A stretch of DNA of 64,000 nucleotides from an uncultured Thermomicrobiales bacterium (GTDB taxonomy: Bacteria > Chloroflexota > Chloroflexia > Thermomicrobiales > CADCWN01): contig CADCWN010000015.1 of assembly GCA_902806415.1 (NCBI GenBank), positions 57,229 through 121,228 of the forward strand, read 5' to 3'. The notes beneath the pieces were generated by a model that saw only the letters and a list, made by a program, of their open reading frames with translations, did no database searches and was not told the DNA's origin. Shown here one piece after another: positions 4,404 to 56,427 of this stretch (positions are counted from its first letter, which is position 1; each line of letters opens with the position of its first letter). Position numbers and translations under genes: made by a program.

Positions 4404-5243
4404 TCACCGACGCACGCGCGTTTCCATCCATTCGACGCCGAAGCGCACGAGATCGGCCGCCGGAAGGAGCGCCGACGGTGCCGCGCCGACAAGTCCGCTG
4501 CTGCCGCGACCGGTCGCGAGATAATCCCGCCCGATCGCCGCGAAGGGGTCGTCCTCGCCGAAGTCGGCGATCCCGTTCGTCGTGTCGTACTCCTCGATCT
4601 CCACCCACACCCGCTCTCCATCGCGCAGAATCGGCATCAGGTAGCGATCGATCCGCTTATCGGGGATATTCGCCAGATGTTCCGCGTGGTGCAGCAGCGT
4701 GATATTCGAGAGGATCGGTCCGAGCAGGAGCACCGCACCATCCGCCGCGCAGAGCCGCGCTGGCGGCGAGTCGGGGCCGTGGCCGTATTGCCAGGAATGG
4801 CGCGCGGTGAGCGCTTCGGCACCCGCGCCCACGGCGACGAACGATGCGAGGGGATGGTCGCTGCGCCGGGCGCCCGGCCAGGTACGCAGATACTCAGCGA
4901 GGACGCTCATCTCGTGATGATCGGCTGGAGAAGTGGCTGGGTCAAACGGCGGACACTCGGCCAGCCAGGCCGCCCGTTGCGCCTCTGACCACCCTGCCAT
5001 CTCGTAAGGATTCCCCTCCCAACTCGCCAGCATCAGCAGCGTCCCGCGCGGCGTCAGCAGATCGAGGAGCGCATCGAGGACGACACGCGGGCCGCCCACG
5101 ACCCAGCCGATCGCCCGCACCGAGGCGTGGAGCATCACCACGCCGCCCTCGCGCACACCCAGCGCGCGGAGGTCGGCGATCAGTTGACTGCGCGTTACGT
5201 GCTGCGCGGCGACGGGGTCTGCTGCGCCCATAGTTGTCCTCAC
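4404..5243 (-). CDS. aminoglycoside N(3)-acetyltransferase family (AAC(3)/Antibiotic_NAT-like)
   Basis: …LRALGVREGGVVMLHASVRAIGWVVGGPRVVLDALLDLLTPRGTLLMLASW…LLLGPILSNITLLHHAEH… resembles AAC(3)-type enzymes. The start is GTG 5243 or ATG 5231. Confidence 0.8.
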   Translation of the reverse strand: MRTTMGAADPVAAQHVTRSQLIADLRALGVREGGVVMLHASVRAIGWVVGGPRVVLDALLDLLTPRGTLLMLASWEGNPYEMAGWSEAQRAAWLAECPPFDPATSPADHHEMSVLAEYLRTWPGARRSDHPLASFVAVGAGAEALTARHSWQYGHGPDSPPARLCAADGAVLLLGPILSNITLLHHAEHLANIPDKRIDRYLMPILRDGERVWVEIEEYDTTNGIADFGEDDPFAAIGRDYLATGRGSSGLVGAAPSALLPAADLVRFGVEWMETRVRR

Positions 5244-6388: not shown

Positions 6389-7444
6389 ATGGCCCGGACC
6401 GCATCCCAGACCGTGCTCGTCACCGGCGGCGCGGGGTTCCTGGGGATTAACTTGCTGCGCTACCTGCACGCGCGCGGTTACGACCTCGTGTCGCTCGACA
6501 TGGCCGATTTCGATTACCCGGATATGCGCGACAAAGTGTTCGTCGTCAAGGGCGACATCCGCGACCGCGCGACCGTCGAGCGCGCGATGAAGGGGGTCGA
6601 TCTCGTCGTCCACGGGGCGGCGGCGCTGCCGCTCTATTCCGAGGAGGATATCTACACCACCGATGTGGTCGGCACCCGGCTGATCCTCGACGTCGCGCGG
6701 CAGCACGGCATCGCGCGCGCCGTCCACGTCTCCTCCACCGCCGTCTACGGGATTCCCGACCATCACCCGCTGGTCGAGGAGGACAAATTGGACGGCGTCG
6801 GCCCCTACGGCAAGGCGAAGATCGAGGCGGAGGAGGTCTGCCTCGAATTCCGCAAGAAGGGGCTGGTCGTGCCGATCATCCGCCCCAAGTCGTTCGTCGG
6901 CCCGGAGCGGCTGGGCGTCTTCGCCCTCTTCTACGATTGGGCGCTTAATGGGCGCAACTTCCCGATGATCGGCAACGGCAAGAACCGCTACCAGTTCCTC
7001 GACGTGGAAGACCTCTGCGCGGCGATTCACCTCTGTTTGACCCTCCCCGCCGAGCGGGCCAACGACACCTTCAACATCGGCGCGGAGGAATTCACCACGA
7101 TGGCCGAGGACTACCAGGCGGTCCTCGACAAGGCGGGCTTCGGCAAGCGGATCATCGGCTTCCCTGCCGAACCGGCGATCTGGGGCCTGCGCTTCCTCGA
7201 ACTGCTGCGCATCTCGCCGCTCTACAAATGGGTCTACGAGACGGCCTCGAAAGATTCGTTCGTCTCGATCGACAAGGCGAAGCGCCAGCTCGGCTTCAAG
7301 CCGCAGTATTCCAATAAGGATGCGCTGCTCCGCAACTTCGCCTGGTATATCGAGCACCGCGATCAGTTCGCCAGCCAGTCCGGGGTCTCCCACCGCGTCC
7401 CCTGGAAACAGGGCGCGCTCGGGCTGCTGAAGCGGGCCTTCTAG
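6389..7444 (+). CDS. NAD-dependent epimerase/dehydratase family protein
   Basis: MARTASQTVLVTGGAGFLGINLLRYL…YGKAKIEAE… shows a Rossmann GxxGxxG and a YxxxK. I trimmed to ATG 6389 (GGGGGA upstream). The first 111 codons of the track ORF are read-through. Confidence 0.9.
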   Translation: MARTASQTVLVTGGAGFLGINLLRYLHARGYDLVSLDMADFDYPDMRDKVFVVKGDIRDRATVERAMKGVDLVVHGAAALPLYSEEDIYTTDVVGTRLILDVARQHGIARAVHVSSTAVYGIPDHHPLVEEDKLDGVGPYGKAKIEAEEVCLEFRKKGLVVPIIRPKSFVGPERLGVFALFYDWALNGRNFPMIGNGKNRYQFLDVEDLCAAIHLCLTLPAERANDTFNIGAEEFTTMAEDYQAVLDKAGFGKRIIGFPAEPAIWGLRFLELLRISPLYKWVYETASKDSFVSIDKAKRQLGFKPQYSNKDALLRNFAWYIEHRDQFASQSGVSHRVPWKQGALGLLKRAF

Positions 7445-8076: not shown

Positions 8077-8238
8077 CTACTGTCTCGCTTCGAGATAGCG
8101 CGGGTGCTCCCACCACGGATAGAAGCGCACTGTATAGCGCGCTTCACGTTCAGGCAGGGAAACGTGCGCGCTGACGAATTCAGCATCAATTTGTGGGTAG
8201 AACCGATCCGCAACCTCGCAATAGTTCAATACTGGCAT
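8077..8238 (-). CDS. hypothetical 53-aa protein
   Basis: MPVLNYCEVADRFYPQIDAEFVSAHVSLPEREARYTVRFYPWWEHPRYLEARQ. Its ATG overlaps the upstream stop (TGATG). It could instead be a frameshifted tail of 8238..8699. Confidence 0.35.
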   Translation of the reverse strand: MPVLNYCEVADRFYPQIDAEFVSAHVSLPEREARYTVRFYPWWEHPRYLEARQ

Positions 8239-8699
8239 CAGATGGTATGCTCCGCCGGCTCGAAGTTGATCGGATGTCCGGCAAAGCGGCACTCGAGATG
8301 GATCTGCGCGTGCTGCGGACCGGCCCAGCGGCAGCGGGCGCAGTGGCTCACGCCGTAGAAATGGTCGAAGAGGGGCTGGCTCATCGTCGTCAGATGGCGG
8401 TCGAGCGCGAGGCGCTTGTACTCCTCGCGCACCGCAGCGTCGAGAGCGCGCGGCAAGCACTGCGGGTAGTGAAGCTGATAAGTCTCGCCGCTGGCACTGT
8501 CCTCCAGCGTCAGTATCTCGACCTCCAAACCACCTTCGATCGCAGCCGCCCGCCCGTTGAGGCGCAGCACCCCCCAATCGACCCCCGCCATCGCCGAGAG
8601 GTACTGGAGGAGCCGCGCCTTATCGATCGTGCGCGTCGCCAACCGCTCCAAGAGCGGGCGTACGCGCTGCACCACATCCTGCGTCGCTCGGTATGTCAT
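8238..8699 (-). CDS. hypothetical Cys/His-containing protein
   Basis: 153-aa track ORF with GGAGGGG upstream of the ATG. It contains …HYPQC…SHCARCRWAGPQHAQIHLECRFAGH…, a possible metal-binding cluster. I recognise no family. Confidence 0.55.
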   Translation of the reverse strand: MTYRATQDVVQRVRPLLERLATRTIDKARLLQYLSAMAGVDWGVLRLNGRAAAIEGGLEVEILTLEDSASGETYQLHYPQCLPRALDAAVREEYKRLALDRHLTTMSQPLFDHFYGVSHCARCRWAGPQHAQIHLECRFAGHPINFEPAEHTI

Positions 8700-8711
8700 G
8701 GCCCCTCCGGG

Positions 8712-8815
8712 GAGTGACGAGTGACGAGTGACGAGTGACGAATGGGAACGTGACGGAGGTCATACATCTTGAGAGTCCTCCCGCGAACCTTATTCGTCAC
8801 TCGTCATTCATCATT
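8712..8815. repeat. heptamer-array hairpin element (locus B)
   Basis: (GAGTGAC)x4 at 8712..8739. The inverse arm ATTCGTCACTCGTCATTCATCATT lies at 8792..8815. The thiM stop (8804..8806) lies inside the right arm. Confidence 0.85.
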
Positions 8816-9607
8816 AATCTTGACTTCTGCAACACCCCGCTGGCCGAGGGCGGCGACCTCATCGATCAAGCGAGCGCGGAAGGTGCCGGGGCCGGGGTCG
8901 CCAGCGGCGGCGCGCTCGGCGGCGAGGCCGTAGGTGCCGAGGGCCAGCGCGGCCTGGGTCACGGGATCACCACCGGCGGCCAGGAAGATGCCGATCGCGG
9001 CGGTCGCCATGCAGCCGGAGCCGGTGATCCGCCCGAGGAGCGGGTGACCGTTGTGGACGGCGAGCGTTTGTCCACCGCCGACAACGATATCGATCGCACC
9101 GGTGACCGCGACCGCGACCCCGAAGCGCGCCGCCGCAGCCCCGGCGACGGCGCGCGGATCTTCCCCGCCGACCGCATCGACGCCGCACATCTGGCCTGAG
9201 CCGACGAGCGCGCCGATCTCGCCGCGATTACCACGCAGCACCGTGATCGGCAGTTCGGAGAGGAGGCGCAGGGCGCTCTCGGTGCGGAACGCCGTCGCGC
9301 CCGCGCCGACCGGATCGAGGACGATCGGCACCCCGCGCGCGGCGGCGGCGCGCCCCGCCAGCAGCATCGCCTCGATCTCGGCCCGCGAGAGGGTGCCGAT
9401 GTTCAGCGCCAACGCCCCGGCCAGCGCCGCCATCTCGGCGGCCTCCTCGGGCGCGTAGGCCATCACCGGCGACGCGCCGAAGGCGAGTGTGACGTTGGCA
9501 ACATCGTTGGTGACGACGATATTGGTGATGTGGTGGATCAGCGGCACCCGCTCGGCCACGCGCGCCAGGGCCGCCGCCGCTTCAGTGCTGAAATCGATGC
9601 CACTCAT
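8804..9607 (-). CDS. thiM: hydroxyethylthiazole kinase
   Basis: …PLIHHITNIVVTNDVANVTLAFGASPVMA…IVLDPVGAGATAFR…TGSGCMATAAIG… is ThiM-like over its full length. Confidence 0.9.
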   Translation of the reverse strand: MSGIDFSTEAAAALARVAERVPLIHHITNIVVTNDVANVTLAFGASPVMAYAPEEAAEMAALAGALALNIGTLSRAEIEAMLLAGRAAAARGVPIVLDPVGAGATAFRTESALRLLSELPITVLRGNRGEIGALVGSGQMCGVDAVGGEDPRAVAGAAAARFGVAVAVTGAIDIVVGGGQTLAVHNGHPLLGRITGSGCMATAAIGIFLAAGGDPVTQAALALGTYGLAAERAAAGDPGPGTFRARLIDEVAALGQRGVAEVKINDE

Positions 9608-9754
9608 CGGCTGCTCCCATCATGACTGCGCGACAAGGTTTACTGAGCATTGATAACAGGTGACGGCGGGGCGGGCAACTGGAGGTCGTTCAAGGTAGGC
9701 GGTTTCAACCGCCTGTTACAGCGCCGCTTTCCCCTACTGCCCGCCTCGCCCGCC

Positions 9755-12448
9755 CTACGCCTCCACGCTCCCGCTCACACTCCGCGCCTCATCCTTCGCC
9801 CCGGACACTTTTTGCTTCAACTCATAGAGCTTCGTGATCGCCTCCAGCGGCGAGAGCGATTCGACATCGAGGGCGCGCAGTTCCTCCACCACCGGGTCGG
9901 GCGCGCCGAAGAGGGAGAGTTGGAACTGGGGCGGCGCGGCGACGGGGGCGGCGCGGCGACCACCGGTGCGGCGCGGGGCGCGCTCGCCGCCACCTTCGAG
10001 GTCGGCCAGGATCTCGCCCGCGCGACGGACGACCGCGCGCGGCATCCCGGCCAGACCGGCGACGTGGATCCCGTAGGAACGGTCGGCCCCGCCGGGGACG
10101 ACGCGCCGCAGGAAGACGACCCGATCGCCCTCTTCGAGCACATCCATCCGCTCGTTCTGCACGCGCGGCAGGATGTCGGCCAGCGCGGTCAACTCGTGAT
10201 AGTGCGTGGCGAAGAGGGTGCGGCAGCCGAGGCGCGGCGTGTTGTGGATGTACTCGCTGACGGCCCGCGCGATCGAGAGGCCGTCGTAGGTGCTGGTGCC
10301 GCGCCCGATCTCGTCGAGGACGATCAGGCTGCGGCGCGTGGCCGAGTTGAGGATCGCGGCCATCTCCAGCATCTCGACCATGAAGGTGCTCTGCCCCGCC
10401 GCCAGGTCATCCTGCGCGCCGATCCGGGTGAAGATCCGATCGACCAGGCCGATCTCGGCGCGGTCGGCGGGGACGAACGCGCCGATCTGCGCCAGCAGGA
10501 CGATCAACGCGACTTGCCGGAGATAGGTGCTCTTGCCGGCCATATTGGGGCCGGTGATGATCACGACCTGGCGCTCGGCGGTGTCGAGATTGGTGTCGTT
10601 CGGCACAAACCCCTCGCTGGCGACCGCCAGCGATGCCTCCACCGTCGGGTGCCGCCCGCCCTCGATGCAGACGATCGGCTCCGGGTCGTCGTTGAGCGTC
10701 GGGCGGACGTAACGGCGCTCGACCGCGACCGTCGCCAGCGCGGCGAAGACATCCAGGTGGGCCAGCGCCTCCGCCGCGCGCATGACATACGGCGCCGCGC
10801 CCGCGACCCGGCCCACCACCTCGCGATAGATCGTCCCCTCCAGCGCCGCGATCCGCTCCTCCGCGCCGCTGACCAGCGTCTCGTACTCTTTCAGCTCGGG
10901 CGTGATGTAGCGCTCCGCGCCGACGAGGGTCTGCTTGCGGATGTAATCGTCGGGGATGGCGTCGCGGTTGGTGTGGCTGATTTCCAGGTAGTAACCGAAG
11001 ACCTTGTTGTAGCCGACCTTCAGCGAGCGGATGCCGGTGCGTTCGCGCTCCGTCCGCTCCAGCCCGGCGATATATGCCTTCGCCTCGCGGGCTTTCTCGC
11101 GCAGGTCGTCGAGGTCGGGCGCGAACCCGGTGCGGATCGACGGCACCTCGGGGCCGAGCGCCGCCGGGGGATCGTCGGCGATCGCCGCGCCGATTGTCGC
11201 CACCAGGTCGTCGAGGCGCGCGGCGCGCAGCGGCGGCAGCCAGGGCGCGAGCGGCCCGCCTGCCCCATCCTCACTAGGAACATCGGCGATCGCCGCCAGC
11301 AGATCGGGCAGGCGGCCGAGCGAGCGCGCCAGGGTGGCGAGATCGCGCGGGGTCGCCGCGCCGGTGACCGCCCGATTGATCAGCCGCTCCAGATCGCCGA
11401 CCCCGCCGAGCAGGGGCGTGATCCGGGCGCGCAGGAGGGCGTCGCGCGCGCAGAGCGCCACCGCCTCCTGCCGTTCAATCAGCGGCGCGAGCTCGACCAG
11501 CGGCTGCCCGAGCCAGCGGCGCAGGAGCCGCCCGCCCATCGGCGTCCTGGTGCGGTCGATCGTCGCCAGCAGTGAGCCGCCGCGCCCGCCGCGACTCCCC
11601 TCGGTCAGTTCGAGGTTGCGCCTGGTTGCGGCGTCCAGGGGCATATAGGCGTCGGTGCTGTAACCGTGCAACTCGGTGATCTGGGCCAGGCCGTCGAGTT
11701 GCGTCGCGGCCAGGTATTGCAGCAGGGCACCCGCCGCACGGATCGCCAGCGGCTGCCCGCCGATCCCGAAGCCGTCGAGCGCGCCGACCGCGAAATGGTC
11801 GCGCAAGGCGTCCTCGGCGCGGTCGAGTCGCCACTCGCGCCCGTCGGTGCGGCTGGTGTAGGCACCGCTCGGCAGCCAGGGCGGCACGTTCCCATCCGGG
11901 TCGTCATCCTTCGTCAGCAGGATCTCCGCCGGGCCGAGCCGCAACAGTTCCTGCGCAATCGCCCCCTCGATCGCTTCGGTGTCGGCGCGGGTGAGTTGCG
12001 TGGCGGCGAACTCGCCGGTGGTGATGTCGGCGTAGGCGACACCGGCGCGCGCGCCCTCGACCAGCACGGCGGCGAGGTAATTGTTGGCGTGACCGGGGAG
12101 CATACTCGGCTCGACGACGGTGCCGGGGGTGACGACGCGCGTGACGCGGCGCTCGACGATCTCCCGCCCCTTCGTCGGCTGGCCGATCTGCTCGCAGACG
12201 GCGACCTTGTACCCGGCAGCGATCAGCTTGGCGATGTGGGCCTCGGCGGAGTGGTACGGCACCCCGGCCAGTGGCAGCTTCTGCCCCCGCCCCATCTCGC
12301 GCGCGGTGAGGGTGATGTCGAGGATGCGCGCGGCGATCTTGGCATCCTCCTCGAACATCTCGTAAAAGTCGCCGAGACGGAAGAAGAGGAGGACATCGGG
12401 GTACTGGCGCTTGATCGCCAGGTATTGCTGCCGGATCGGCGTCGTCAT
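9755..12448 (-). CDS. mutS: DNA mismatch repair protein MutS
   Basis: 897 aa. MTTPIRQQYLAIKRQYPDVLLFFRLGDFYEMFEEDA…, Walker A in IITGPNMAGKSTYLRQ, then …STFMVEMLE…DEIGRGTSTYDG…. Confidence 0.97.
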   Translation of the reverse strand: MTTPIRQQYLAIKRQYPDVLLFFRLGDFYEMFEEDAKIAARILDITLTAREMGRGQKLPLAGVPYHSAEAHIAKLIAAGYKVAVCEQIGQPTKGREIVERRVTRVVTPGTVVEPSMLPGHANNYLAAVLVEGARAGVAYADITTGEFAATQLTRADTEAIEGAIAQELLRLGPAEILLTKDDDPDGNVPPWLPSGAYTSRTDGREWRLDRAEDALRDHFAVGALDGFGIGGQPLAIRAAGALLQYLAATQLDGLAQITELHGYSTDAYMPLDAATRRNLELTEGSRGGRGGSLLATIDRTRTPMGGRLLRRWLGQPLVELAPLIERQEAVALCARDALLRARITPLLGGVGDLERLINRAVTGAATPRDLATLARSLGRLPDLLAAIADVPSEDGAGGPLAPWLPPLRAARLDDLVATIGAAIADDPPAALGPEVPSIRTGFAPDLDDLREKAREAKAYIAGLERTERERTGIRSLKVGYNKVFGYYLEISHTNRDAIPDDYIRKQTLVGAERYITPELKEYETLVSGAEERIAALEGTIYREVVGRVAGAAPYVMRAAEALAHLDVFAALATVAVERRYVRPTLNDDPEPIVCIEGGRHPTVEASLAVASEGFVPNDTNLDTAERQVVIITGPNMAGKSTYLRQVALIVLLAQIGAFVPADRAEIGLVDRIFTRIGAQDDLAAGQSTFMVEMLEMAAILNSATRRSLIVLDEIGRGTSTYDGLSIARAVSEYIHNTPRLGCRTLFATHYHELTALADILPRVQNERMDVLEEGDRVVFLRRVVPGGADRSYGIHVAGLAGMPRAVVRRAGEILADLEGGGERAPRRTGGRRAAPVAAPPQFQLSLFGAPDPVVEELRALDVESLSPLEAITKLYELKQKVSGAKDEARSVSGSVEA

Positions 12449-15049: not shown

Positions 15050-15363
15050 CAGCGCTGCGGATCCCTCTTCAGTTGAGCAACTGTCGGGGCGGGAGTCAGC
15101 TCGCGCTCTAACTGATCAACAAGGGCGAGACCGCGCGCGATCTCGTCGTCTAGCTCACCCTGATGATCCCAGTAATACGCGAGAGCCGAGTGGATTTGGC
15201 CGAGCGTGAGGTATGGATACTGGAACTGGAGCTCGGCAGGGCTCCAACCGTAAGCACGTTGCGCCACGACGAGTTCGAGTACTTTCATCGTCGTGCCAGC
15301 AATAAGCGGTGTATGCTGATCGTTGAGGACAACGTGCTGATAGCGTGTCGCGGCGAGCGCCAT
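15049..15363 (-). CDS. DUF433 domain putative antitoxin
   Basis: MALAATRYQHVVLNDQHTPLIAGTTMKVLELV…QFQYPYLTLGQIHSALAYYWDHQGELDDEI… I trimmed from the 224-aa track ORF to ATG 15363. Confidence 0.8.
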   Translation of the reverse strand: MALAATRYQHVVLNDQHTPLIAGTTMKVLELVVAQRAYGWSPAELQFQYPYLTLGQIHSALAYYWDHQGELDDEIARGLALVDQLERELTPAPTVAQLKRDPQR

Positions 15364-16273: not shown

Positions 16274-16410
16274 GAACGCGGAAGTCGGAGCGCGGAGCGC
16301 GGAATAAGAAGCGAGGACCGGGCGGGGGGCACATGTTGTGCCGCCCCGCCGCATTATTCGGCAGGGCCATCACCCCTTGTTCCGCGTTCCGACTTCCGAC
16401 TTCCGCGTTC
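16274..16410. repeat. heptamer-array hairpin element (locus C) with nested GC hairpin
   Basis: The arms 16274..16307 and 16377..16410 are 29/34 complementary by my alignment. An inner hairpin GGCGGGGGGCACA/TGTGCCGCCCCGCC lies at 16321..16350. The element starts 4 nt after the sodA stop. Confidence 0.85.
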
Positions 16411-16489
16411 CACAGCCCCTCTGGCACCATCCTTGCGCTGCCTGCGGGGAAGACCTCGTCGTTCTAGCAAAGACCAGAAGGAGGATCTT

Positions 16490-17269: not shown

Positions 17270-17950
17270 CTACAGCCGCGAGGCGTATGCCTCGTTATAG
17301 AGGAGCTCGCGCGACCACGCGCCGGGCGGCTGCGCGTGCAACTGCCAATACGCCTCCGCGATCCGGTCGGCGTCGAAGAGGGTCCGCTCGCGCACCTCGC
17401 CGAGGATCGTCACCGTCGCCGCGTGGATCCCCTGCGGCTCCAACTCCGCCCCGAGGTTCAGCGCCAGGCTCCGCAAGGCCGCCTTGCCGATCCCCAGCGA
17501 CGCCATCGGCGCGTAGGTGTTGAGGGCGAAGCCGCCGCCGGTGAGCATGATCGTCCCCTCGCCGCGCTCGCGCATCGCCGGCAGCACCTCGCGCACACAG
17601 GCGAGCGCGGCGACCACGCTGACCGTGAGATCGCCGCGCAATTGCTCGGCGGTCAGCTGCGATGGCACCCCGTGCGTGACGGCGCTGGCGTTGTAGACCA
17701 GCACATCCGGCGCGCTGAGTTCCGCGCCGATCCGCGCGAATAGCTCGGGGATCGCCGTCAGATCAGCGAGATCGGCAGGGTAGGCGACTGCGGTGTCGCC
17801 TTCGGCCCGCAACTCCTCCGCATACTGGCGTAGCGCCTCGGCCCGACGCGCCACCAGCGCGATCCGGAAGCCCTCGCGCGCGAAGCGGCGGGCGACCGCC
17901 AGGCCGATCCCCGGCCCCGCGCCAACGATCACACAGGTCTGCCCCTCCAC
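17270..17950 (-). CDS. SDR family oxidoreductase
   Basis: MEGQTCVIVGAGPGIGLAVARRFAREGF…VLVYNAS…, a short-chain dehydrogenase Rossmann pattern. Confidence 0.85.
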   Translation of the reverse strand: MEGQTCVIVGAGPGIGLAVARRFAREGFRIALVARRAEALRQYAEELRAEGDTAVAYPADLADLTAIPELFARIGAELSAPDVLVYNASAVTHGVPSQLTAEQLRGDLTVSVVAALACVREVLPAMRERGEGTIMLTGGGFALNTYAPMASLGIGKAALRSLALNLGAELEPQGIHAATVTILGEVRERTLFDADRIAEAYWQLHAQPPGAWSRELLYNEAYASRL

Positions 17951-18044
17951 CCGTCGCGCCCCTTCCTAACACCCACCACATCATCACGCGCCCGACTCTC
18001 TCCGGCGGGTGCCCATTTTACCAGCAACGCGGCGGGCGTGGGCA

Positions 18045-18100
18045 CGATCCCCTACAATCTCGCCGTGGCGTGAGCGCGATCCCCCACAGTCTCGCCGTGG
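18045..18100 (+). promoter_or_regulatory. tandem 24-nt direct repeat (32-nt period) upstream of the sigma-factor gene
   Basis: CGATCCCCTACAATCTCGCCGTGG (18045..18068) and CGATCCCCCACAGTCTCGCCGTGG (18077..18100) are 22/24 identical. Copy 1 contains TACAAT. Confidence 0.4.
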
Positions 18101-18138
18101 TGATGGGGCGACGCGAGCAAAGGTGCATCGGAGGCGCG

Positions 18139-18993
18139 ATGAGCGGGGCACGTAGCGGGCGCGATCCCGCCGAGGGTGTCTTCGCGGGCTTCCTCGATCG
18201 CCACTGGGCGGAGGTGGTGCGCTTCTTCCGGCAAGGGCTCTACCGCGAGCGTGACCGGCGCAACGCCGAGGACTGCGCCCAGGAAGCGTTCATCAAGCTG
18301 GCGCGGCGGTATCGCGATGACACCGCCACCGTGCGCGCGGTCGTCGGCCAGGGTCGGGCAACGGGGCGACCGCTCGCCATCGCTGAACTGGCGCGGCACC
18401 TCGCGTGCGACCCCGCCGAGGCCGAGGTGCGGGCGCGGCGCGCCGTCGTGAGCGGCTGGCTCCGCGTCAGCGAGACGGAAGGAGGGACAGCCTTTGACGG
18501 CGCGATCACCTTCGGGTCGGCACCGCTCGTCCTCGATCTCGCGCCGCTGGCGGCGATGCGCTGGACAACCTACCGCAATGTCCTGGCCGATTATGGGCGA
18601 CGGCGGATCGCGGCGGACAACGCCCGCGCGGGCGACCTGGCGGATCTCGTGGCAACGGGCCAGGAGCCGCGCGATCCGCAGCCCGGCCCCGAGCGCGCGA
18701 CCGCAGCGACGGAGCTACACGCACAGATCGCCGCCTGCCTGGATACGCTGCCGCACGCCGAGCGCACGGTCCTGATCCTGCATTACTTCTATGGGCTGCG
18801 CTTCCCGGCGATCGTCACAGTGCCGGGCGTGCCGGAACTCCTCGAACCGCCGGGCATCGCCGAGGGGCGCTCCGCGACCCAACTGGTGCAACGGCTGAAA
18901 GATCTGGCCAAGGCCGGGCGGCGGCAGATGCGACGACACTGCCCGCATCTGGCCGACTTCCTCGTGGGCGGGGGCGACGATGACGAGCGGTGA
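18139..18993 (+). CDS. sigma-70 family (ECF-like) RNA polymerase sigma factor with insertions
   Basis: Region-2-like …AEDCAQEAFIKLARRY… and …RWTTYRNVLADYGRRR…, and region-4-like …LDTLPHAERTVLILHYFYGLRF…QLVQRLKDLAKAGRRQM… I trimmed to ATG 18139. Confidence 0.65.
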   Translation: MSGARSGRDPAEGVFAGFLDRHWAEVVRFFRQGLYRERDRRNAEDCAQEAFIKLARRYRDDTATVRAVVGQGRATGRPLAIAELARHLACDPAEAEVRARRAVVSGWLRVSETEGGTAFDGAITFGSAPLVLDLAPLAAMRWTTYRNVLADYGRRRIAADNARAGDLADLVATGQEPRDPQPGPERATAATELHAQIAACLDTLPHAERTVLILHYFYGLRFPAIVTVPGVPELLEPPGIAEGRSATQLVQRLKDLAKAGRRQMRRHCPHLADFLVGGGDDDER

Positions 18994-21698: not shown

Positions 21699-22637
21699 TC
21701 ACCCGGCCAGCATTTCCACCAGCAGCGCCTTCTGGACATGCAGGCGGTTCTCGGTCTGGTCGAAGACGATCGACTGCGGGCCATCCACCACCTCGGCGGT
21801 GACCTCCTGACCGCGCAGGACCGGCAGGCAGTGCATGAAGACCGCGTCGGGGTGCGTGGCATCCATCAGGCCGTCGGTGACCCGATACGGCTCCAAATCA
21901 TCGACCGGCATCGTGTCGGGGTCGCCCATGTTGCGCCAGACATCGGTGTAGACGACATCCGCGCCGCGCACGCCCAGGTACGTATCGTGGATCACCTCGA
22001 CCGTGGCATCGTTGGCGGCGGCATGGCGCTCCGCCCGTGCCAGGATATCGGCGTTCGGCATCCGCGTCGGCGGACAGACAACGCGCACATTCAGCCCGAG
22101 CAGTGCCCCCGACAGCATCAGCGAATGGCACATATTGTTCGCACCGCCCACAAAGGCGAGGGTGCGCCCCTGCCAGCCGCCCAACTTTTCGCGGACGGTC
22201 AGCATATCACAAAGCGCCTGGCACGGGTGCAGGAGATCCGAGAGGCCATTGATCGTCGGCAGGCCGCCGACCAGCAGCCCCTCCAGCGTCTCGTGATGCA
22301 TCACGCGCGCCATGACCGCATCCACGTAGCGGGCCAGGACTCGGCTGGTATCCTCGATCGTCTCGCCCCGCCCGAGTTGCAGATCGCGCGTCGAGAGGAA
22401 GAGTGCATGGCCGCCGAGTTGCGCCACCCCGGCCTCGAACGAAACGCGGGTGCGGAGGGAGACCTTCTCGAAGATCAGTGCCACGGTCTTGCCGCGCAGG
22501 ATCTCGTCGTGCAGGAGTCCGCGCCGCCGATCGTCCTTCAGCGCCGTCGCCCGATCGAGGACACGGAGCAACTCTGCGGTGCTGAAATCATCATCGGCGA
22601 TGAAGCTGCGGCCCTTCAGCGATACTACTGCGGTCAT
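21699..22637 (-). CDS. argF: ornithine carbamoyltransferase-like protein
   Basis: …ALIFEKVSLRTRVSFE…HPCQALCDM…DVWRNMG…FMHCLPVLRGQEVT… The overall pattern is OTC. Two motifs are atypical (SLRTR, NMG), so the gene symbol is tentative. Confidence 0.85.
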   Translation of the reverse strand: MTAVVSLKGRSFIADDDFSTAELLRVLDRATALKDDRRRGLLHDEILRGKTVALIFEKVSLRTRVSFEAGVAQLGGHALFLSTRDLQLGRGETIEDTSRVLARYVDAVMARVMHHETLEGLLVGGLPTINGLSDLLHPCQALCDMLTVREKLGGWQGRTLAFVGGANNMCHSLMLSGALLGLNVRVVCPPTRMPNADILARAERHAAANDATVEVIHDTYLGVRGADVVYTDVWRNMGDPDTMPVDDLEPYRVTDGLMDATHPDAVFMHCLPVLRGQEVTAEVVDGPQSIVFDQTENRLHVQKALLVEMLAG

Positions 22638-22658
22638 CCCTCTCTCCGGTTTATTGTT

Positions 22659-22823
22659 GGCAGTCGGCAGTCGGCTGGTAGTCGTCGGTCGTCGGTCGTC
22701 AGTCCTCAGAAGAGCGTCCGTAGTCCGTAGAAGGGTAGCTGACCTGCGGCCCTACTCGACCACTGGCCCACTGGCTCACTCGCACCACCCTCTGACGACT
22801 GACGACTGCCGACCGACGACTCG
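22659..22823. repeat. composite heptamer-array element (locus D)
   Basis: RGTCGTC-type array, AGTCCTC-AGAAGAG, AGTCCGT-AGAAGGG, TGGCCCA/CTGGCTC units, then a complementary CTGACGA array. It fills the whole gap between the carbamoyltransferase start and the upp stop. Confidence 0.9.
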
Positions 22824-23495
22824 CTACTCGCCCGTGTGGAAGACACGATCCCCCGCGTCGCCGAGGCCGGGGCAAATATATCCCTGCTCGTTCAATTCGC
22901 GGTCGAGCGCCGCGACATAGATCTCTACGTCGGGATGTGCCTCGGTCAGCTGCGCCACGCCATAGGGCGCGGCGACGATGCCGATATAGGTGATCCGCTC
23001 CGCGCCGACCTCTTTCACCAGATCCACCGCGCTCACCGCCGAGCCACCGGTCGCCAGCATCGGGTCGACGACGATGCAATGCGCGGCCTGCCCGCTCCGC
23101 ATCGCACGGTTGTAATACGGGACCGGGCGTAGCGTCTCCTCGTCGCGGTAGAGGCCGAGGTGCCAGACGCGCGCCTCCGGCAGCAGGCGCAGCAGCGGCT
23201 CGACCATCGCCAACCCGGCGCGCATGATCGGCACGATCGCGATCGGTTGCGCCACTTTCACCCCGATCATCGGCTCCAGCGGCGTCACGATCGGTCGCTC
23301 GGCCAGTGCCAACCCGGCCAGCGCCTCATAACCGACGAGGGTCGTCAACTCGCCGAGCAACTCGCGGAAGCGCGACGGTGCCGTCTCGGTGGCACGCAGC
23401 AGAGTCAGTTGCACCGCGATCAGCGGGTGCGTCGCCACATGCAGGCGCGGCTGGCGCAACGCCTCCGCGCGCGTCGGCTGCTCCCGACCGGCCAT
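22824..23495 (-). CDS. upp: uracil phosphoribosyltransferase
   Basis: …HPLIAVQLTLLR…IVPIMRAGLAM…VDPMLATGGSAV…YICPGLGDAGDR… I trimmed from the 534-aa track ORF to ATG 23495. Confidence 0.92.
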   Translation of the reverse strand: MAGREQPTRAEALRQPRLHVATHPLIAVQLTLLRATETAPSRFRELLGELTTLVGYEALAGLALAERPIVTPLEPMIGVKVAQPIAIVPIMRAGLAMVEPLLRLLPEARVWHLGLYRDEETLRPVPYYNRAMRSGQAAHCIVVDPMLATGGSAVSAVDLVKEVGAERITYIGIVAAPYGVAQLTEAHPDVEIYVAALDRELNEQGYICPGLGDAGDRVFHTGE

Positions 23496-23808
23496 CGGTC
23501 GCGGTCGCGCGCCCTCAACCACCGCTACCCCTCCATATACGCGCCATTTTGGATACGCGTCACTGAGGCCCAAATACCCGCGCATCGGTCGCCGCTGGCG
23601 GTGCTCAGGCTCCCGACCGGTGCCGGAAGACCGGTAGTATACAACACCGCTATTCCGGCGATGTGGTGCCGTTTTCGGGGCGGCACGCGATGTGCGCCGC
23701 CCCTCCCGCTGGGGAACGTACTCGCGCTGGGCGCGCGTCCTCCCCATAGGTCTGGGCCACTGGAGCTCTATACCGTTCGCTGGAACTGTGCAATCGGGGG
23801 AGAAGCCA

Positions 23809-39908: not shown

Positions 39909-39996
39909 AGTCCGTAGTCCGTAGAAGGTTCGTAGGTATGCTAATGCTTTACTTTTCTGCAGTCCCTCTACGGACTACGGACTACGGACTACGGAC
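39909..39996. repeat. heptamer-array hairpin element (locus E)
   Basis: AGTCCGT AGTCCGT AGAAGGT, an AT-rich loop, then CCTCTAC (GGACTAC)x3 GGAC. The rimI stop TAG (39982..39984) lies inside the right arm. Confidence 0.9.
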
Positions 39997-40593
39997 CGCC
40001 CCATTCGGCGAATCATGCCACCGCGCCAGCCTCAGGCCGAGGGTGGCGCGCAACCCGGCCAGGCTTTCGAGGGTCGGGCTTTCGTTGAGGGCTGGCGACC
40101 ACATGATGTGAGCGTCCTCGCCATTGTCGCTGTAATAACGCTTGCGGAGGCCCTGCCGCGTGAAACCGTACTTCTCGTAGAGCGCCAGCGCGCTGGCGTT
40201 GGAGACGCGCACCTCCAGCGTCACCCAGCGCGAGCGGCGGCGGATCGCCTCATCGATCATCGTCACGAAGAGGAGTTCGCCGAGCGACCGCCCGCGCTGC
40301 TCGGGCAGGACACCGATCGTGGTGATGTGCGCCTCGTCGAGCATATTCCACATCCCGCCGAAGCCGAGAATCGGCGGTTTCGCGGGGTCCGCGCGGCGCA
40401 CGAACGGCAACAGGTGCAGCCCGCCGCGCGGGCGCTCGTCCGGCACGCCCGTATGCGGCGGTCGCCAGCGCACGACGATGTAGTAGTTGTGCTCGGTGTC
40501 GCGCAGTTCGCGCCGATAGGCGCTGCTCGGCCAGGGGTTGGTGAAGCAGCGGCGCTCCACCTGGCTGACTTCCTGGACATCGTCTTGGGTCAT
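39982..40593 (-). CDS. rimI: ribosomal-protein-alanine N-acetyltransferase RimI-like GNAT
   Basis: MTQDDVQEVSQVERRCFTNPW…ITTIGVLPEQRGRSLGELLF…LEVRVSNASALALYEKYGF… The track ORF (to 40725) adds about 44 aa that translate repeat locus F. The start is set to ATG 40593, with GTG 40605 as an alternative. Confidence 0.8.
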   Translation of the reverse strand: MTQDDVQEVSQVERRCFTNPWPSSAYRRELRDTEHNYYIVVRWRPPHTGVPDERPRGGLHLLPFVRRADPAKPPILGFGGMWNMLDEAHITTIGVLPEQRGRSLGELLFVTMIDEAIRRRSRWVTLEVRVSNASALALYEKYGFTRQGLRKRYYSDNGEDAHIMWSPALNESPTLESLAGLRATLGLRLARWHDSPNGAVRSP

Positions 40594-40624
40594 CGGCTCG
40601 ATCACGAACGGCACGGCACGCCTC

Positions 40625-40700
40625 GGTAGATAGTCGGTAGTCGGTAGTCCGTAGAAGGGCGGCGACTCTGCTTCCCTATCCGCCCACTCGCCAGTGGCTA
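40625..40700. repeat. heptamer-array element (locus F)
   Basis: GGTAGAT AGTCGGT AGTCGGT AGTCCGT AGAAGGG CGGCGAC…CCCACTCGCCAGTGGC. It lies between the tsaB stop and the probable rimI start. Confidence 0.85.
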
Positions 40701-40728
40701 GTCGAGGGTCGCGCTTGGGGGGCATAAC

Positions 40729-42247: not shown

Positions 42248-44323
42248 ATGGCAGCGAACCGAGCAATCACCGCCGACGATCTGTACGCGCTCCAATTCGT
42301 TGGCGACCCGCGCGTCTCGCCCGACGGGGCGCGCGTCGCCTTTGTCGTCACGGTGGCCGACCGGGAGCGCAACGACTATCGCTCGCGGATTTGGATCGTC
42401 CCGATCGATGGCAGCGCACCGCCGCGCCCGCTCACCGCCGGGCCGGGCAAGGACACCAGCCCGCGCTGGTCGCCCGACGGCCGGCGCATCGCCTTCCTGT
42501 CCGATCGCGAGCCGGCGACCTTGCCGGATGGCGTCGAGCGCGGCGAGAAGGCGAAGCCGCAAATCTGGACCCTCGATCTGGCCGGCGGCGAGGCGCGGCA
42601 AGTCACCGCCCTACGGCAGGGCACGAGCGATCCCGCCTGGTCGCCCGATGGCGCGCGGCTCGCCTGCACCTCGCAGGTCGGCGGGCCGGACGACGAGCCG
42701 ATCGACACCGGCAAATCGGCGACCGAGCGGGCGCGGGAGCGCGCCGACCGGGTCCGCGAGATCACCACCCTGAAGTACAAGTTCGACGGCCTCGGCTACC
42801 TCGACGGCAAGCGGCGGCACCTCTTCGTCGCCGATGTACCAGCCCCCGGCGCGTCGCCCGCCGCCGCGCACCAGCTCACCGACGGCGACCAGAACGACAG
42901 CCAGCCGGCGTGGTCGCCGGACGGGACGCGGCTCGCGTTCGTCTCCTATCGCGAGCCGGACGAGGATGTAACCTTCCGATCCGACATCTGGACGCTGACC
43001 CTCGCCGACGGCGTGTGCCGCAAGCTGACCGGCGGGGGCGGCGCATCGACCGCCCCTGCCTGGTCGCCCGATGGCGGGCAGATCGCCTATCTGGGCCATC
43101 AGGAGGGCGAGGGCGCGGCGGCGATGACCCGCCTCTGGACCGTCGGGACGGGCGGCGACGGGCCGCCGGTCTGCCGCAGCGCCGACTTCGATCGCGACCT
43201 CGGCAATAGCACCCTCACCGACCAGACCTTGCCGGGCGGCCAGGAAGGGCCGGTCTGGTCGCTCGATGGCCGCGCGATCCTCGCCCTGGTCGGCGACGGC
43301 GGGGCGACGGGGCTGCGGCGCTTCGGGCTCGACGGTAGCGAGCCGGAGGTCGTGGTCTGCGGCGAGCGGGTTGTGACTGCCTTCGCGACTGCGGGCGGGG
43401 GCGCGCGGCTGGTCTTCGCCGCGACCGACCCCGCCACACCCGCCGAACTCTTCCTACTGGATGGGGAAGGCGACGAGCGGGCGCTGACGGCCTGCAATGC
43501 CGCCCTGCTGCGCGAGCGCGCGGTCGCCCTGCCCGAGTCGTTCCGCTTCAGCGGCGCGCGGGGCGACGCGATCGATGGCTGGCTCGTGCGCCCGCTCGGC
43601 GCGGCGGCGGGCGCGGCGGTGCCGCTGGTCGTGGCGATCCACGGCGGGCCGCACGCGCAGTACGGCTTCGCCTTCTTCCACGAGTTCCAGATCCTGGCCG
43701 GGAAGGGCTACGCGGTCTTCTACTGTAACCCGCACGGCGGCACCGGGCGCGGCGACGCCTTCGCCAAGGCGATCCTCCGCGACTGGGGCGCGCTCGCGAT
43801 GGCTGACGTGATGGCCGGGCTCGACGCGGCCCTCGCGCGCGGCGGCTGCGACCCGGCGCGGCTCGGCGTCACCGGCGGCTCGTATGGTGGGTTCCTGACC
43901 AACTGGATCACCAGCCACACGACGCGCTTCGCCGCCGCCGTGACGCAACGGTCCTATTGCAACGCCCTCGGCTACTTCGGCGTGGATGACATCGGCGCGA
44001 TCAGCGATGTGGCCGAGTTGGGCGGCCATCCCTGGGAAGTCCCCGAGCGTTATCTCGCCCTCTCCCCGATTCTGCACGTCGGCAACGTCACCACGCCGAC
44101 CCTGATCGAGCACCAGGCCGAGGACTATCGCTGCCCACTCAGCCAGGCCGAGCAGTGGTACGCCGCCCTGAAGAAGCGCGGCGTCCCGACCAAGCTCCTG
44201 ATTTATCCCAATGAGAGTCACGGGATGTCGCGCAACGGCAAGCCGCGCCACCGGATCGAGCGCCTGATGCACAACAGCGCCTGGTTCGATCAGTGGCTCG
44301 GGGGGAGTAATCGTGAGTCGTGA
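42248..44323 (+). CDS. S9 family serine peptidase with N-terminal beta-propeller
   Basis: Repeated …SPRWSPDG.R.AF… propeller motifs. The catalytic region is …GVTGGSYGGFLTNW… I trimmed to ATG 42248. The stop lies inside repeat locus G. Confidence 0.9.
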   Translation: MAANRAITADDLYALQFVGDPRVSPDGARVAFVVTVADRERNDYRSRIWIVPIDGSAPPRPLTAGPGKDTSPRWSPDGRRIAFLSDREPATLPDGVERGEKAKPQIWTLDLAGGEARQVTALRQGTSDPAWSPDGARLACTSQVGGPDDEPIDTGKSATERARERADRVREITTLKYKFDGLGYLDGKRRHLFVADVPAPGASPAAAHQLTDGDQNDSQPAWSPDGTRLAFVSYREPDEDVTFRSDIWTLTLADGVCRKLTGGGGASTAPAWSPDGGQIAYLGHQEGEGAAAMTRLWTVGTGGDGPPVCRSADFDRDLGNSTLTDQTLPGGQEGPVWSLDGRAILALVGDGGATGLRRFGLDGSEPEVVVCGERVVTAFATAGGGARLVFAATDPATPAELFLLDGEGDERALTACNAALLRERAVALPESFRFSGARGDAIDGWLVRPLGAAAGAAVPLVVAIHGGPHAQYGFAFFHEFQILAGKGYAVFYCNPHGGTGRGDAFAKAILRDWGALAMADVMAGLDAALARGGCDPARLGVTGGSYGGFLTNWITSHTTRFAAAVTQRSYCNALGYFGVDDIGAISDVAELGGHPWEVPERYLALSPILHVGNVTTPTLIEHQAEDYRCPLSQAEQWYAALKKRGVPTKLLIYPNESHGMSRNGKPRHRIERLMHNSAWFDQWLGGSNRES

Positions 44324-44427
44324 GTCGTGAGTCGTGAGGGAGGCGTTGCTGGAAAAAGGGCGCCCGGCTTCAGCAAATCTTCTCGCGATTCGTGACCCAC
44401 GACTCACGACTCACGACTCACGACTCG
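44312..44427. repeat. heptamer-array hairpin element (locus G)
   Basis: (CGTGAGT)x3.9 at 44312..44338 and the complementary (CACGACT)x4 at 44398..44425, separated by a 59-nt loop. Confidence 0.9.
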
Positions 44428-47753: not shown

Positions 47754-48524
47754 CTAGACCCTCCTCGGCGGATAGCTCACCCGAGCAGAACCGGCGCACA
47801 CGCGCGACAGGGGCGCACCATATTGACGCCGAGTACGCTGGAAAGCTGTCCTCGCACAAGTGGGGAGCGGCACTGTAGGCTCATGCACGAAGGACGCTCA
47901 AACCTTTCTTGACAAGGCAAGGTGATGTATTGCATACGCCCTGTTCGAGACCGCGAAGTGCTCGTGGGTTGAGGAGCGCGGTGGTGCGTCGGCCCGGAGT
48001 GCTGCTCGCGCCATGCCCTGGTTAGGCGGCATACGCGCATCCTTTCCCGCCAAGCGATGCTCACCGATGGCACAGTAACACACACCAACCGCCCGGTCTC
48101 CCCTGCTTGCCGCTCCTATATTCGAACGTTAGGAGAACCCCTGGCGTGGGTTGGGCGCACGCGCTAGCCCCTATCCAGCAGGTCGAGCGGGAGCAGCAGG
48201 TCAAGCTGCAGGAGACCGAGATCCTGCGCCGCGAGACCGAGCGGCAGTGGATCAAGACCCTCGCCGCCGCCGAGAGCAGCCGCCACTCCCTGGAAGCGGG
48301 CGGGCGGGCGGCGGCAGACGCGCTGATGAACGATGTCACCAGGATGGTGGCGCAGGCCCTGGGCGCCCCCCGCCTTGCTGTCGCGTTGTCGCGCAGCCTG
48401 GGCGGGTGCGCGGTCCCCGGAGTCACAGCGCCGGGTCAGCACGCGGGCGACACCCGCGTGCGAGAGACCCCACCCACCGGCCTCCCCCGTCCACTGGCCC
48501 TCTCGCCCACTCGCCCACAACCCC

Positions 48525-49332: not shown

Positions 49333-49406
49333 GAATGACGAGTGATGGGTGAAGTACGAAGTACGGGCTGGCACTGGCCCACTGGCCCATTCGTCATTCG
49401 TCGTTA
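49333..49406. repeat. heptamer-array element (locus H)
   Basis: GAATGAC GAGTGAT GGGTGAA GTACGAA GTACGGG CTGGCAC TGGCCCA CTGGCCC ATTCGTC ATTCGTC. GAATGACGA (49333..49341) pairs with TCGTCATTC (49391..49399). Confidence 0.85.
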
Positions 49407-53716: not shown

Positions 53717-53996
53717 CTACCGCAGATACGGCCCGAGATCGATCGCGCGATCCTCTTCAGCGGCGAGATACACTCCATACGATACCGCGACGACATCGCG
53801 CGCGAGGAGTGCGCCGCTGAGCGGTTCGCGGTCGTCGGCGACAGTTTTCGCAGAGGTCTTGTAGCTCCGCCGTCGGCGAGTAGAGCCCCGCGATCGACAC
53901 CTCGACCCCGTGGACGAGCGCATAGTTCTCCAGGTGCAGCCGCGCGGCAAACCCCGCGCCGACTATGCCGATGCGGACGTGGCGGCGTGCGGGCAT
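53717..53996 (-). pseudogene. N-terminal fragment of a Gfo/Idh/MocA oxidoreductase (frameshifted, truncated)
   Basis: MPARRHVRIGIVGAGFAARLHLENYALVHGVEVSIAGLYSPTAE (53757..53996 frame) continues in another frame as …KTVADDREPLSGALLARDVVAVSYGVYLAAEE…*. No catalytic or C-terminal domain follows. Confidence 0.6.
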
Positions 53997-54013: not shown

Positions 54014-54160
54014 AGTCGTCGGTCGTCAGTCGTCAGTCGCCAGAAGAAAATGTGCAGGCCGCAGCCCGTAGAAGGGCGGCTTCATGCTCACACTCGGCAC
54101 TCGGCACTCGGCACTTCTCTCTGACGATTGACGATTGACGACCGACGACTGACGACTGCC
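54014..54160. repeat. composite heptamer-array element (locus I)
   Basis: AGTCGTC GGTCGTC AGTCGTC AGTCGCC AGAAGAA … AGCCCGT AGAAGGG … (CACTCGG)x3 … GATTGAC GATTGAC GACCGAC GACTGAC GACTGCC. The module order matches locus D. Confidence 0.9.
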
Positions 54161-54164
54161 AACT

Positions 54165-56334: not shown

Positions 56335-56427
56335 GTAGGGGCGCATTGCATACGCCCGCACGTCGTCTTCCTGCCCACGGTTGTAGACATCCCCGGCGTG
56401 GGTCGGGCGTATGCAATGCGCCCCTAC
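56335..56427. repeat. 93-bp MITE-like element with perfect 23-nt terminal inverted repeats
   Basis: GTAGGGGCGCATTGCATACGCCC (56335..56357) is the exact reverse complement of GGGCGTATGCAATGCGCCCCTAC (56405..56427). It belongs to the same family as 2470..2564, in inverted orientation. Confidence 0.85.

Follow-up and report, generated by a model that had tools for sequence, protein, structure and literature searches.

The 64,000-nucleotide stretch analysed here (hereafter the window), which belongs to contig CADCWN010000015.1 of an uncultured Thermomicrobiales bacterium, carries between the genes upp and argF a composite repeat, locus D, that is probably one copy of a young, dispensable and species-specific palindromic repeat, similar in form to repetitive extragenic palindromic (REP) sequences and to REP doublets forming hairpins (REPINs), generated by slippage together with arm-to-arm or locus-to-locus copying, and having, if transcribed, generic effects at the RNA level. 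Its anatomy, its paralogy, its turnover and its polymorphism in unit number are matters of observation. D belongs to a larger, lineage-restricted population of intergenic hairpins with tandem-heptamer arms, in which the 5′ arms are of the type AGTNNNN and the 3′ arms of the type NNNNACT, the four variable bases being specific to each locus. D is neither an argF-specific switch nor an intrinsic terminator.

The window has a G+C content of 68% and corresponds to positions 57766-121765 of the 134-kb ENA contig ERZ1300058 NODE_7; four independent assemblies (ENA, JGI, two Logan runs) contain the locus D element itself. On the minus strand, upp (22824-23522), which encodes uracil phosphoribosyltransferase (PF14681), lies upstream of argF (21699-22637), whose 312-aa product is identical to an NCBI ornithine carbamoyltransferase of uncultured Thermomicrobiales bacterium and contains PF02729/PF00185 and the HPCQ and HCLP motifs that assign it to this enzyme. 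The two genes share a strand, and the spacer between them runs for 186 nt from the upp stop codon (CTA on the plus strand, 22824-22826) to the argF ATG (22635-22637). According to the first-pass annotation, the element fills this whole gap. That is nearly so: the right arm stops 2 nt short of the upp stop codon, and on the argF side only the 21 nt between 22659 and the ATG at 22637, which contain the Shine-Dalgarno sequence, are free. The parts of the locus are as follows, those listed without a strand having none assigned:

22638-22658, minus strand: element-free argF leader, with the Shine-Dalgarno sequence GGAGAGAGGG (complement of 22638-22647) just 5′ of the ATG at 22635-22637
22659-22679: three degenerate units that the inverted repeat does not include, GGCAGTC GGCAGTC GGCTGGT; the sense strand reads CCGACTGCCGACTGCC
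22680-22710: 5′ arm of a 31-nt inverted repeat, AGTCGTC GGTCGTC GGTCGTC AGTCCTC AGA, 90% complementary
22711-22735: inner heptamers in the register of the 5′ arm, AGAG CGTCCGT AGTCCGT AGAAGGG
22720-22781, plus strand: core of about 60 nt, GTAGTCCGTAGAAGGG...CCACTGGCCCACTGGCT, common to loci D, G and I (nhmmer)
22748-22780: octamer array of GGCCCACT-type units (a Tandem Repeats Finder row), which disrupts the 7-nt register
22791-22821: 3′ arm of the inverted repeat, TCT GACGACT GACGACT GCCGACC GACGACT, 2 nt before the upp stop codon at 22824-22826

The 23 heptamer strings that had been read from 22659 match the sequence exactly, and the proposed complementarity of the RGTCGTC and CTGACGA arrays was confirmed as a pair of 31-nt arms, 90% complementary and with 80 nt between them. 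The two signature pairs (AGTCCTC-AGAAGAG and AGTCCGT-AGAAGGG) are indeed 21 nt apart and in register, and they lie within the truly period-7 left block 22659-22735 (lag-7 z 6.7, lag-21 z 5.8). The idea that one 7-nt register spans all 161 nt holds for this block and for 22792-22823 (period 7, z 5.9) but not for the middle 56 nt (22736-22791), which give no period-7 signal (lag-7 z -0.9) and have a period-8 signal (lag-8 z 4.7) from CCACTGGC-type octamers; the CACTGGCCCACTGGC of the octamer array also occurs at 49372. The register shared by the right and left arms of D is a 1-in-7 coincidence, the arms of the paralogous locus I being 107 nt apart (15×7+2) and thus out of register there. Unit numbers are unequal between the two arms both in D and in I. 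When folded as the 198-nt sense RNA, D reaches -92 kcal/mol (z -3.7 versus dinucleotide shuffles), and none of 200 shuffles was as good.

That D and a second locus 31 kb away, locus I, have the same order of modules was borne out, and more strongly than had been claimed, since the two are alignable homologues. The pairwise alignment, which had been proposed as a check, gave 76% identity over about 150 nt, including the non-heptamer stretches CAGAAGA, CCGYAGYCCGTAGAAGGG and CTCTGACGA, and the cores alone scored at z ~5.5, a value reached by 1 of 2000 shuffles. A profile search built from D and I led to a third core copy, locus G, in the tsaB-rimI spacer, which is 74% identical to the core of D over 50 nt (score reached by 0 of 2000 shuffles). 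With nhmmer, the core profile gave E-values of 2e-14 for D, 2.4e-14 for G and 1.6e-8 for I, and no significant match in ten related Thermomicrobiales loci, which amount to about 190 kb. The 64-kb window thus holds three core copies that are 74-76% identical to one another. The two paralogous loci are laid out as follows:

54014-54163: locus I, paralogous copy, with arms at 54014-54044 and 54120-54150 and two extra units to 54163
54061-54109: core of locus I, with a CACTCGG array of 3.6 units at 54091-54115
40631-40703, plus strand: locus G, a TAGTCGG array of 2.7 units plus the third core copy (40644-40703), within the tsaB-rimI spacer (40594-40728) and without AGTCGTC arms

The arms of locus I are again 31 nt long and 90% complementary, the arm-to-arm spacers of D and I measure 75-80 nt, and the equivalent RNA of I folds at -92 kcal/mol (z -6.6). 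Locus I, which is identical in a fifth contig (L142), is flanked by the stop codon of a Gfo/Idh/MocA gene (54165) and by the ATG (53996) of a truncated Gfo-like remnant. The shared module order of D and I reflects the common descent of two copies of one dispersed element and thus paralogy within one genome. The view that D represents a conserved architecture rather than simple slippage therefore needs to be divided: the third core copy at G and the module order shared by D and I speak for common descent and for more than simple slippage, but the architecture is not conserved between species, and slippage operates as well.

The gene that follows locus I (53760-53996, minus strand) is a 79-codon remnant whose first ~45 residues match the N-terminus of a 398-aa Gfo/Idh/MocA protein of relatives (L143, L144) before it diverges and stops, a truncation also seen in a second assembly (L142), and the element at I is therefore not kept for a working downstream cistron. 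A reading of the core as a small open reading frame (ORF) was rejected: the indels among D, I and G are not multiples of three, and an ATG is present in I only. A half-element at 2625-2668 consists of CCCACTCACCCATC followed by GACGACT GACGGCT GACGACT and resembles the right half of D and I; it lacks a partner arm on its 5′ side and immediately precedes the Shine-Dalgarno sequence of a plus-strand M42 peptidase gene.

Beyond these three loci, the heptamer arrays of the window are non-random: 19 exact period-7 arrays were found against 2.75 expected, with a maximum of five in 20 Markov shuffles, and by a rough gene map 18 of the 19 are intergenic, the majority of them arranged in inverted pairs. 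Inverted pairs with stable hairpins occur at seven places (8712-8803, 16277-16411, D, 39909-39996, 44311-44426, 49333-49404 and I), among which are the following sister hairpins, none with an assigned strand:

8712-8803: GAGTGAC x4 and TTCGTCACTCG, between thiM and the next gene
16277-16411: arms of GGAGCGC and TTCCGAC type around a plain GC-rich hairpin, in the SOD-CBS spacer (-97 kcal/mol, z -8)
39909-39996: AGTCCGT x2 and CTACGGA x4, in the rimI-tsaD spacer, with the rimI stop codon inside the array
44311-44426: TCGTGAG x4 and CACGACT x4, beginning within the stop codon of a peptidase S9 gene

The units vary by locus (AGTCGTC, AGTCCGT, AGTCGTG, AGTGACG, AGTCGGT, GGAGCGC), and AGT or ACT is present in 14 of the 19 arrays against the 12% expected from base composition (p 9e-10). 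Of 12 inverted pairs found in the window and in relatives, 11 have the AGT-type arm 5′ and the ACT-type arm 3′ (p 0.006), the sole exception being a Sphaerobacter-like contig (L141) with long degenerate NNTGCGT/ACGCANN arrays. Because the polarity of a palindrome is identical on both strands, it reflects some property of the hairpin or of the symmetric duplex and not the direction of transcription or replication. The neighbouring genes are functionally unrelated (upp/argF, Gfo/Idh/MocA, thiM, tsaB/rimI/tsaD, peptidase S9, an SDR and SOD/CBS), and arrays overrun gene ends, the stop codons of rimI and of the peptidase S9 gene lying inside them.

Two of these loci show further details. The rimI ORF as called (39982-40725, minus strand) begins with 44 spurious N-terminal codons (MPPKRDPRLATGEWADREAESPPFYGL...) that are translated element G; its true start is likely the ATG at 40593 (MTQDDVQEV...), and its stop codon lies inside the CTACGGA array. 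At 16277-16411, heptamer arms surround the GC-rich hairpin CGGGCGGGGGGCACATGTTGTGCCGCCCCGCCG, which is followed by CATTATT, and the relative L139 (12490-12676) has a GC-rich hairpin alone, which suggests that a terminator-like stem already in place can be the starting point from which arrays extend outwards.

Comparison with related genomes showed a turnover of such elements. The pairing of upp and argF is kept in relatives whose carbamoyltransferases are 76-90% identical, and their upp-argF spacers of 78-134 nt have no homology to D beyond the stop codon and the Shine-Dalgarno sequence; the GGAGAGAGG of the argF leader is also present in the L138 orthologue. At this junction the spacer of L138 (90%) forms a hairpin (-74 kcal/mol, z -6.7) whose arms are AGTCGGY/RCCGACT and whose centre differs, and L132 and L133 (76%) have a hairpin of TTCGAAGG octamers, the two (L132, 9923-10000; L133, 9891-10000) being several TTCGAAGG/CCTTCGAA octamer units apart, with spacers of 78 versus 110 nt. 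In L125, L128 and L130 the spacer is no more stably folded than its shuffled versions (z -0.7 to 0.2), and L139 (83%, 59% G+C) has a short, weak hairpin (z -2.3). Conservation of the architecture across species is thus unsupported, as the upp-argF spacer differs in every relative. The sense-strand CCGACTGCCGACTGCC at 22659-22679 matches the 3′ arm ACTGCCGACTGCCGACTG of the L138 hairpin, which suggests that the D-type element took the place of an older AGTCGGY hairpin, and the three degenerate units there are probably the remnant of an older AGTCGGY/RCCGACT array.

In L139, no period-7 array was found in 21 kb, and its tsaB-rimI and rimI-tsaD spacers, of 22 and 15 nt versus 135 and 84 nt in the window, represent empty sites. 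The Gfo-Gfo spacer that corresponds to locus I in L143, an 86% relative, contains CCAGTGGG, AGTCGTC and CACTCGG units in a different order. Period-7 arrays were absent from the first 50 kb of the Thermomicrobium roseum megaplasmid and from a 13-kb T. roseum-like contig. The distribution is patchy, as it is for long simple sequence repeats generally (PMC4679880). In the Sphaerobacter-like metagenome-assembled genome L141 (73% G+C), positions 4905-5145, 7220-7330 and 15080-15180 hold degenerate arrays of up to ~13 units, NNTGCGT and ACGCANN, whose polarity is opposite to that of the window; here a different Thermomicrobia lineage shows the phenomenon in a second dialect.

Variation is also found within the species. 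Relative to the window, a JGI contig of the species (L003) is short of a single complete 7-nt unit (22703-22709) and has 4 substitutions in 186 spacer nt versus 6 in 1097 coding nt (odds ratio 4, p 0.044); at its junction, GTCGCCAGAAGAG, it resembles locus I more closely than D of the window does. The one-unit deletion, together with the unequal numbers of units in the two arms, indicates that slippage operates too. At the inspected loci, a sequence-motif scan with GYAGYCCGTAGAAGGG over 596 Gb of genome contigs gave only chance matches without heptamer arrays, the motif being too short, and a scan of metagenome contigs with AGTCNNCAGAAGAN{5,25}CCGTAGAAGGG gave four low-GC chance matches, with a pattern that missed L003 (GGTC for AGTC). 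A blastn search of D against a plasmid collection gave no match.

The role in termination or pausing that the first-pass annotation implied found no support in the sequence, in which no U-tract terminator, promoter or Rfam match was detected. No sigma-70-like promoter and no intrinsic terminator was found on either strand within 22300-23200, and the sense sequence after the D stem reads ACCAGCCGACUGCC, without a U-tract. At the Rfam gathering score nothing matched anywhere in the window, and a search of 22600-22860 by E-value brought up no more than two snoRNA hits at chance level (E 6-9). The sister elements inside the tsaB-rimI-tsaD operon could hardly be efficient terminators, because efficient termination would be harmful there. 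When sense and antisense folds were compared for 13 hairpin entries (12 independent, L132 and L133 being one locus), the sense strand was better in 5 and the antisense strand in 6, with 2 ties; given this lack of a sense-strand bias, G-U pairing shows no sign of selection on mRNA. A non-exhaustive Pfam scan, which covered 20 window proteins and among them ORFs from poorly called regions, revealed no transposase and no obvious RNA-binding partner. A PyrR-type attenuator, an idea raised by a PyrR-like upp product next to a carbamoyltransferase gene, was rejected, as the downstream gene is not pyrB and no PyrR-site match exists. For argF and upp as such, the element is an ordinary finding and gives no hint of a dedicated regulatory device.

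Under the reading of D as a slippage- and copying-derived repeat, arrays would arise, grow, shrink and be replaced through replication slippage. Among the long simple sequence repeats of prokaryotes, heptamers are the most frequent, and polymerase slippage has been given as their cause (Mrazek 2007, as summarised in PMC4679880). The complementarity of the arms and the transfer of the composite between loci could come about by template switching or by gene conversion through similar arms; the former is able to generate hairpin arms, to make them uniform and to lengthen them (PMC8794818, PMC13100816). The growth of an array would stop at the upstream stop codon and at the downstream Shine-Dalgarno sequence. 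D is probably co-transcribed with upp and argF, and its RNA is predicted to form a stem-loop of about -80 kcal/mol with a stem of at least 31 bp. By analogy with REP hairpins, which have been proposed to block 3′ exonucleases or to be cut by RNase III (PMC3733652), the likeliest effect would be a generic one, with D acting as a barrier to 3′ exonucleases and/or as an RNase III site and so giving the two cistrons separate fates.

Several points weigh against this reading. Slippage alone leaves unexplained the complementarity of the arms, the near-constant AGT-first polarity and the retention of AGT/ACT, which point to a structure- or sequence-specific process, and the fixed polarity and the conserved AGT/ACT may leave room for a hairpin-specific enzyme or a binding protein. 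The hairpins span the distance from stop codon to Shine-Dalgarno sequence and are rare in divergent promoter regions (1 of 15, versus ~25% of spacers), a placement that a selected RNA role would fit too. The alignment of D, its L003 counterpart and I (three sequences) has a conserved outer stem and one compensatory pair, with a covariation term that gives no support for structure. Furthermore, the estimates of copy number and spread come from three core copies in one 64-kb window.

Among the other explanations, a REPIN- or MITE-like (miniature inverted-repeat transposable element) non-autonomous mobile element, whose single-stranded DNA hairpin is copied to new intergenic sites by a dedicated hairpin-specific enzyme (a RAYT or IS200-type HUH transposase, or similar) with the heptamer arms as a by-product, is rather unlikely. 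It would account well for a species-specific intergenic element of ~145 nt that has long terminal inverted repeats, three paralogous copies in 64 kb and empty orthologous sites in L139, and whose strict arm polarity, the same on both strands, is as expected if a hairpin is recognised; REP-type elements are present in the same genome, as true GTAG-tagged REP-like palindromes, and REPINs are inverted REP pairs that form long hairpins (PMC3116915, PMC3337134). However, each locus has its own heptamer type, unlike the near-identical members of REPIN populations, core copy G is without arms, and neither target-site duplications nor sharp common boundaries were found. The incomplete scan of 20 window proteins contained no transposase, the plasmid collection held no similar DNA, and no unpaired GTAG or CGTC tag stands beside a compact 20-40-nt palindrome as the definition in PMC3733652 would have it. 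Quite unlikely, in our estimate, is a new REPIN-like system in which a hitherto undescribed machinery recognises the hairpin and its polarity (AGT 5′ and ACT 3′, on either strand) and thereby makes and spreads the elements; the repeats would be a periodic 7-nt recognition array and the D/I/G core its cargo or recognition centre, and the mechanism might be shared with the ACT/AGT heptamers of cyanobacteria (short tandemly repeated repetitive sequences, STRR) and Beggiatoaceae (TAACTGA).

A selected intercistronic RNA element, which would terminate, pause or process the upp-argF transcript or shield the argF ribosome-binding site (RBS) and so set the ratio of the two proteins, seems decidedly unlikely. 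Its appeal lies in an element that starts 2 nt past the stop codon, ends at the Shine-Dalgarno region and folds very stably, in the hairpins at the same junction in L138, L132 and L133, in the preference for co-directional and convergent spacers, and in proposals that heptamers near start codons affect translation in Beggiatoaceae and Nostoc (PMC4679880; bioRxiv 10.1101/2022.06.06.494920). Against it stand the missing U-tract terminator and Rfam family, the even balance of sense and antisense folds (5 versus 6, with 2 ties), the three of seven orthologous spacers that fold no better than shuffles beside the weak short hairpin of L139 (z -2.3), the occurrence of the same type before a dead gene remnant and of sister elements inside an essential operon, and the variation of sequence and unit number among strains. 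We consider very improbable a double-stranded DNA binding array, in which converging AGT heptamers serve as sites for an oligomeric nucleoid-associated or regulatory protein and three units make two helical turns. The 21-nt spacing of the signature pairs would fit this model, as would the retention of AGT/ACT in most units while the other four bases vary and the orientation of the units, which point inwards from both sides; in Streptomyces, SARP regulators are bound by direct repeats of heptamers (PMC5930380). Yet the analysis turned up no candidate protein, loci and strains differ freely in variable bases, unit numbers and spacers, close relatives with the same genes lack the elements, and the complementarity of the arms has no role in such a model. 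A chance pattern or an assembly artefact is practically negligible as an explanation: metagenome assemblies can collapse or misjoin repeats, but D is found in four independent assemblies and locus I is identical in a fifth contig, and the statistics are far from chance.

The heptamer elements share features with several known systems. Like an intrinsic (Rho-independent) terminator, they place a stable GC-rich stem-loop right after a stop codon, but they lack a U-tract, have stems of at least 31 bp and large internal loops, and in several cases lie inside operons. Mycobacterial interspersed repetitive units (MIRUs) are likewise repeats between the cistrons of operons, occur in high-GC genomes and vary in copy number; their units, however, are 40-100 nt long and are direct repeats with small ORFs coupled to neighbouring genes, not hairpins. 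As in MITEs, terminal inverted repeats are present, and there are filled and empty orthologous sites, with a precise insertion footprint not definable; no target-site duplication was found at the flanks of D, I or G, and the ends are not defined, being blurred by unequal extra units.

The resemblance to REP sequences, bacterial interspersed mosaic elements and REPINs (PMC3733652, PMC3116915, PMC3337134) includes an intergenic position, mostly downstream of genes in co-directional or convergent spacers, inverted pairs in hairpins of ~100-150 nt, a lineage-specific occurrence in several copies per genome and a presumed transcription into RNA hairpins. In agreement with the REPIN pattern, D has two inverted units in a long intergenic hairpin (31-nt arms, 90%). 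D-type arms, in contrast, consist of 4-7 tandem heptamers and not of a compact 20-40-nt palindrome with an unpaired GTAG/CGTC tag (PMC3733652); the core of D does include a GTAG (CCGTAGAAGGG), and the units include CGTC, but in neither case does an unpaired tag adjoin a compact stem of at least 8 bp. The heptamer elements also use units of each locus's own, so that copies are not near-identical, and no RAYT was present among the 20 window proteins scanned.

The window contains, in addition, a separate family of REP-like sequences, GTAG-GGGCGTAT-TGC-ATACGCCC(-CTAC), which fits the REP definition with its GTAG tag far better than the heptamer elements do. Five copies were found, among them two closely spaced pairs, of which 56340/56406 is inverted (REPIN-like), and no copy was present in the related loci scanned:

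2475-2500: GTAG REP-like copy
2543-2568: GTAG REP-like copy
47924-47945: GTAG REP-like copy
56340-56362: GTAG REP-like copy
56406-56430: GTAG REP-like copy

With the heptanucleotide long simple sequence repeats (Mrazek et al. 2007, summarised in PMC4679880), the window elements have in common tandem 7-nt units above chance, a sporadic phylogeny, an intergenic position and a slippage-like variation of units. Arrays above chance with Tandem Repeats Finder rows and polymorphism in unit number (L003; L132 versus L133) were both found. They differ from these repeats in that the arrays form complementary inverted pairs of fixed polarity around a non-repetitive core, and in that the whole composite is duplicated between loci. 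The STRR of cyanobacteria and the TAACTGA repeats of Beggiatoaceae are heptamer arrays near the start codons of many unrelated genes, without a known function (PMC4679880; bioRxiv 10.1101/2022.06.06.494920), and the TAACTGA unit contains ACT, just as most window units contain AGT or ACT. They are, however, almost all direct repeats (MacGregor: one inverted set among 170) that overlap or replace the RBS and use one or few fixed units, whereas the window arrays, from Chloroflexota/Thermomicrobia, are inverted pairs of diverse units with a canonical Shine-Dalgarno sequence outside. In place of the fixed units (CCCCAGT, TTGGTCA and CAACAGT, or TAACTGA) as direct repeats at or over the RBS, the window elements have AGTCGTC, AGTCCGT, AGTCGTG, AGTGACG and others. 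Two of the STRR heptamers, STRR1 (CCCCAGT) and STRR3 (CAACAGT), contain AGT. The idea that the units are GANTC (CcrM/HinfI) sites was rejected, GAGTC or GACTC being present in some units only.

The 7-nt preference of bacterial simple repeats, and whether the arrays act at all, have been open questions since the STRR work of the 1990s and the prokaryote survey of 2007. The present lineage offers a clean natural series, in which close relatives with and without arrays can be compared at the same junctions, the arrays are paired with fixed polarity and conserved AGT/ACT, and one composite has been copied between loci. This series makes it testable whether it is selection on an RNA or template switching that keeps the arms complementary, and whether a specific protein reads the repeat. 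What is new is a local flavour of bacterial repetitive DNA with heptamer arms, not a gene-specific switch. In practical terms, the elements make gene callers over-extend ORFs, as with rimI, and are strain-variable markers.

Two other regions of the window also carry repeats. Positions 18035-18100 hold a 32-nt tandem repeat (2.1 copies, 88% match) inside ORF 17719-18993, which has only a weak sigma-70 region 4 match. Within 8238-12448, thiM and its repeat-filled flanking spacers stand between the gene of a 153-aa protein (8238-8699) and an 897-aa ORF (9755-12448); at 13590-16749 of L139, the very next gene after mutS, across a gap of 28 nt, is the one for the 153-aa protein's orthologue.

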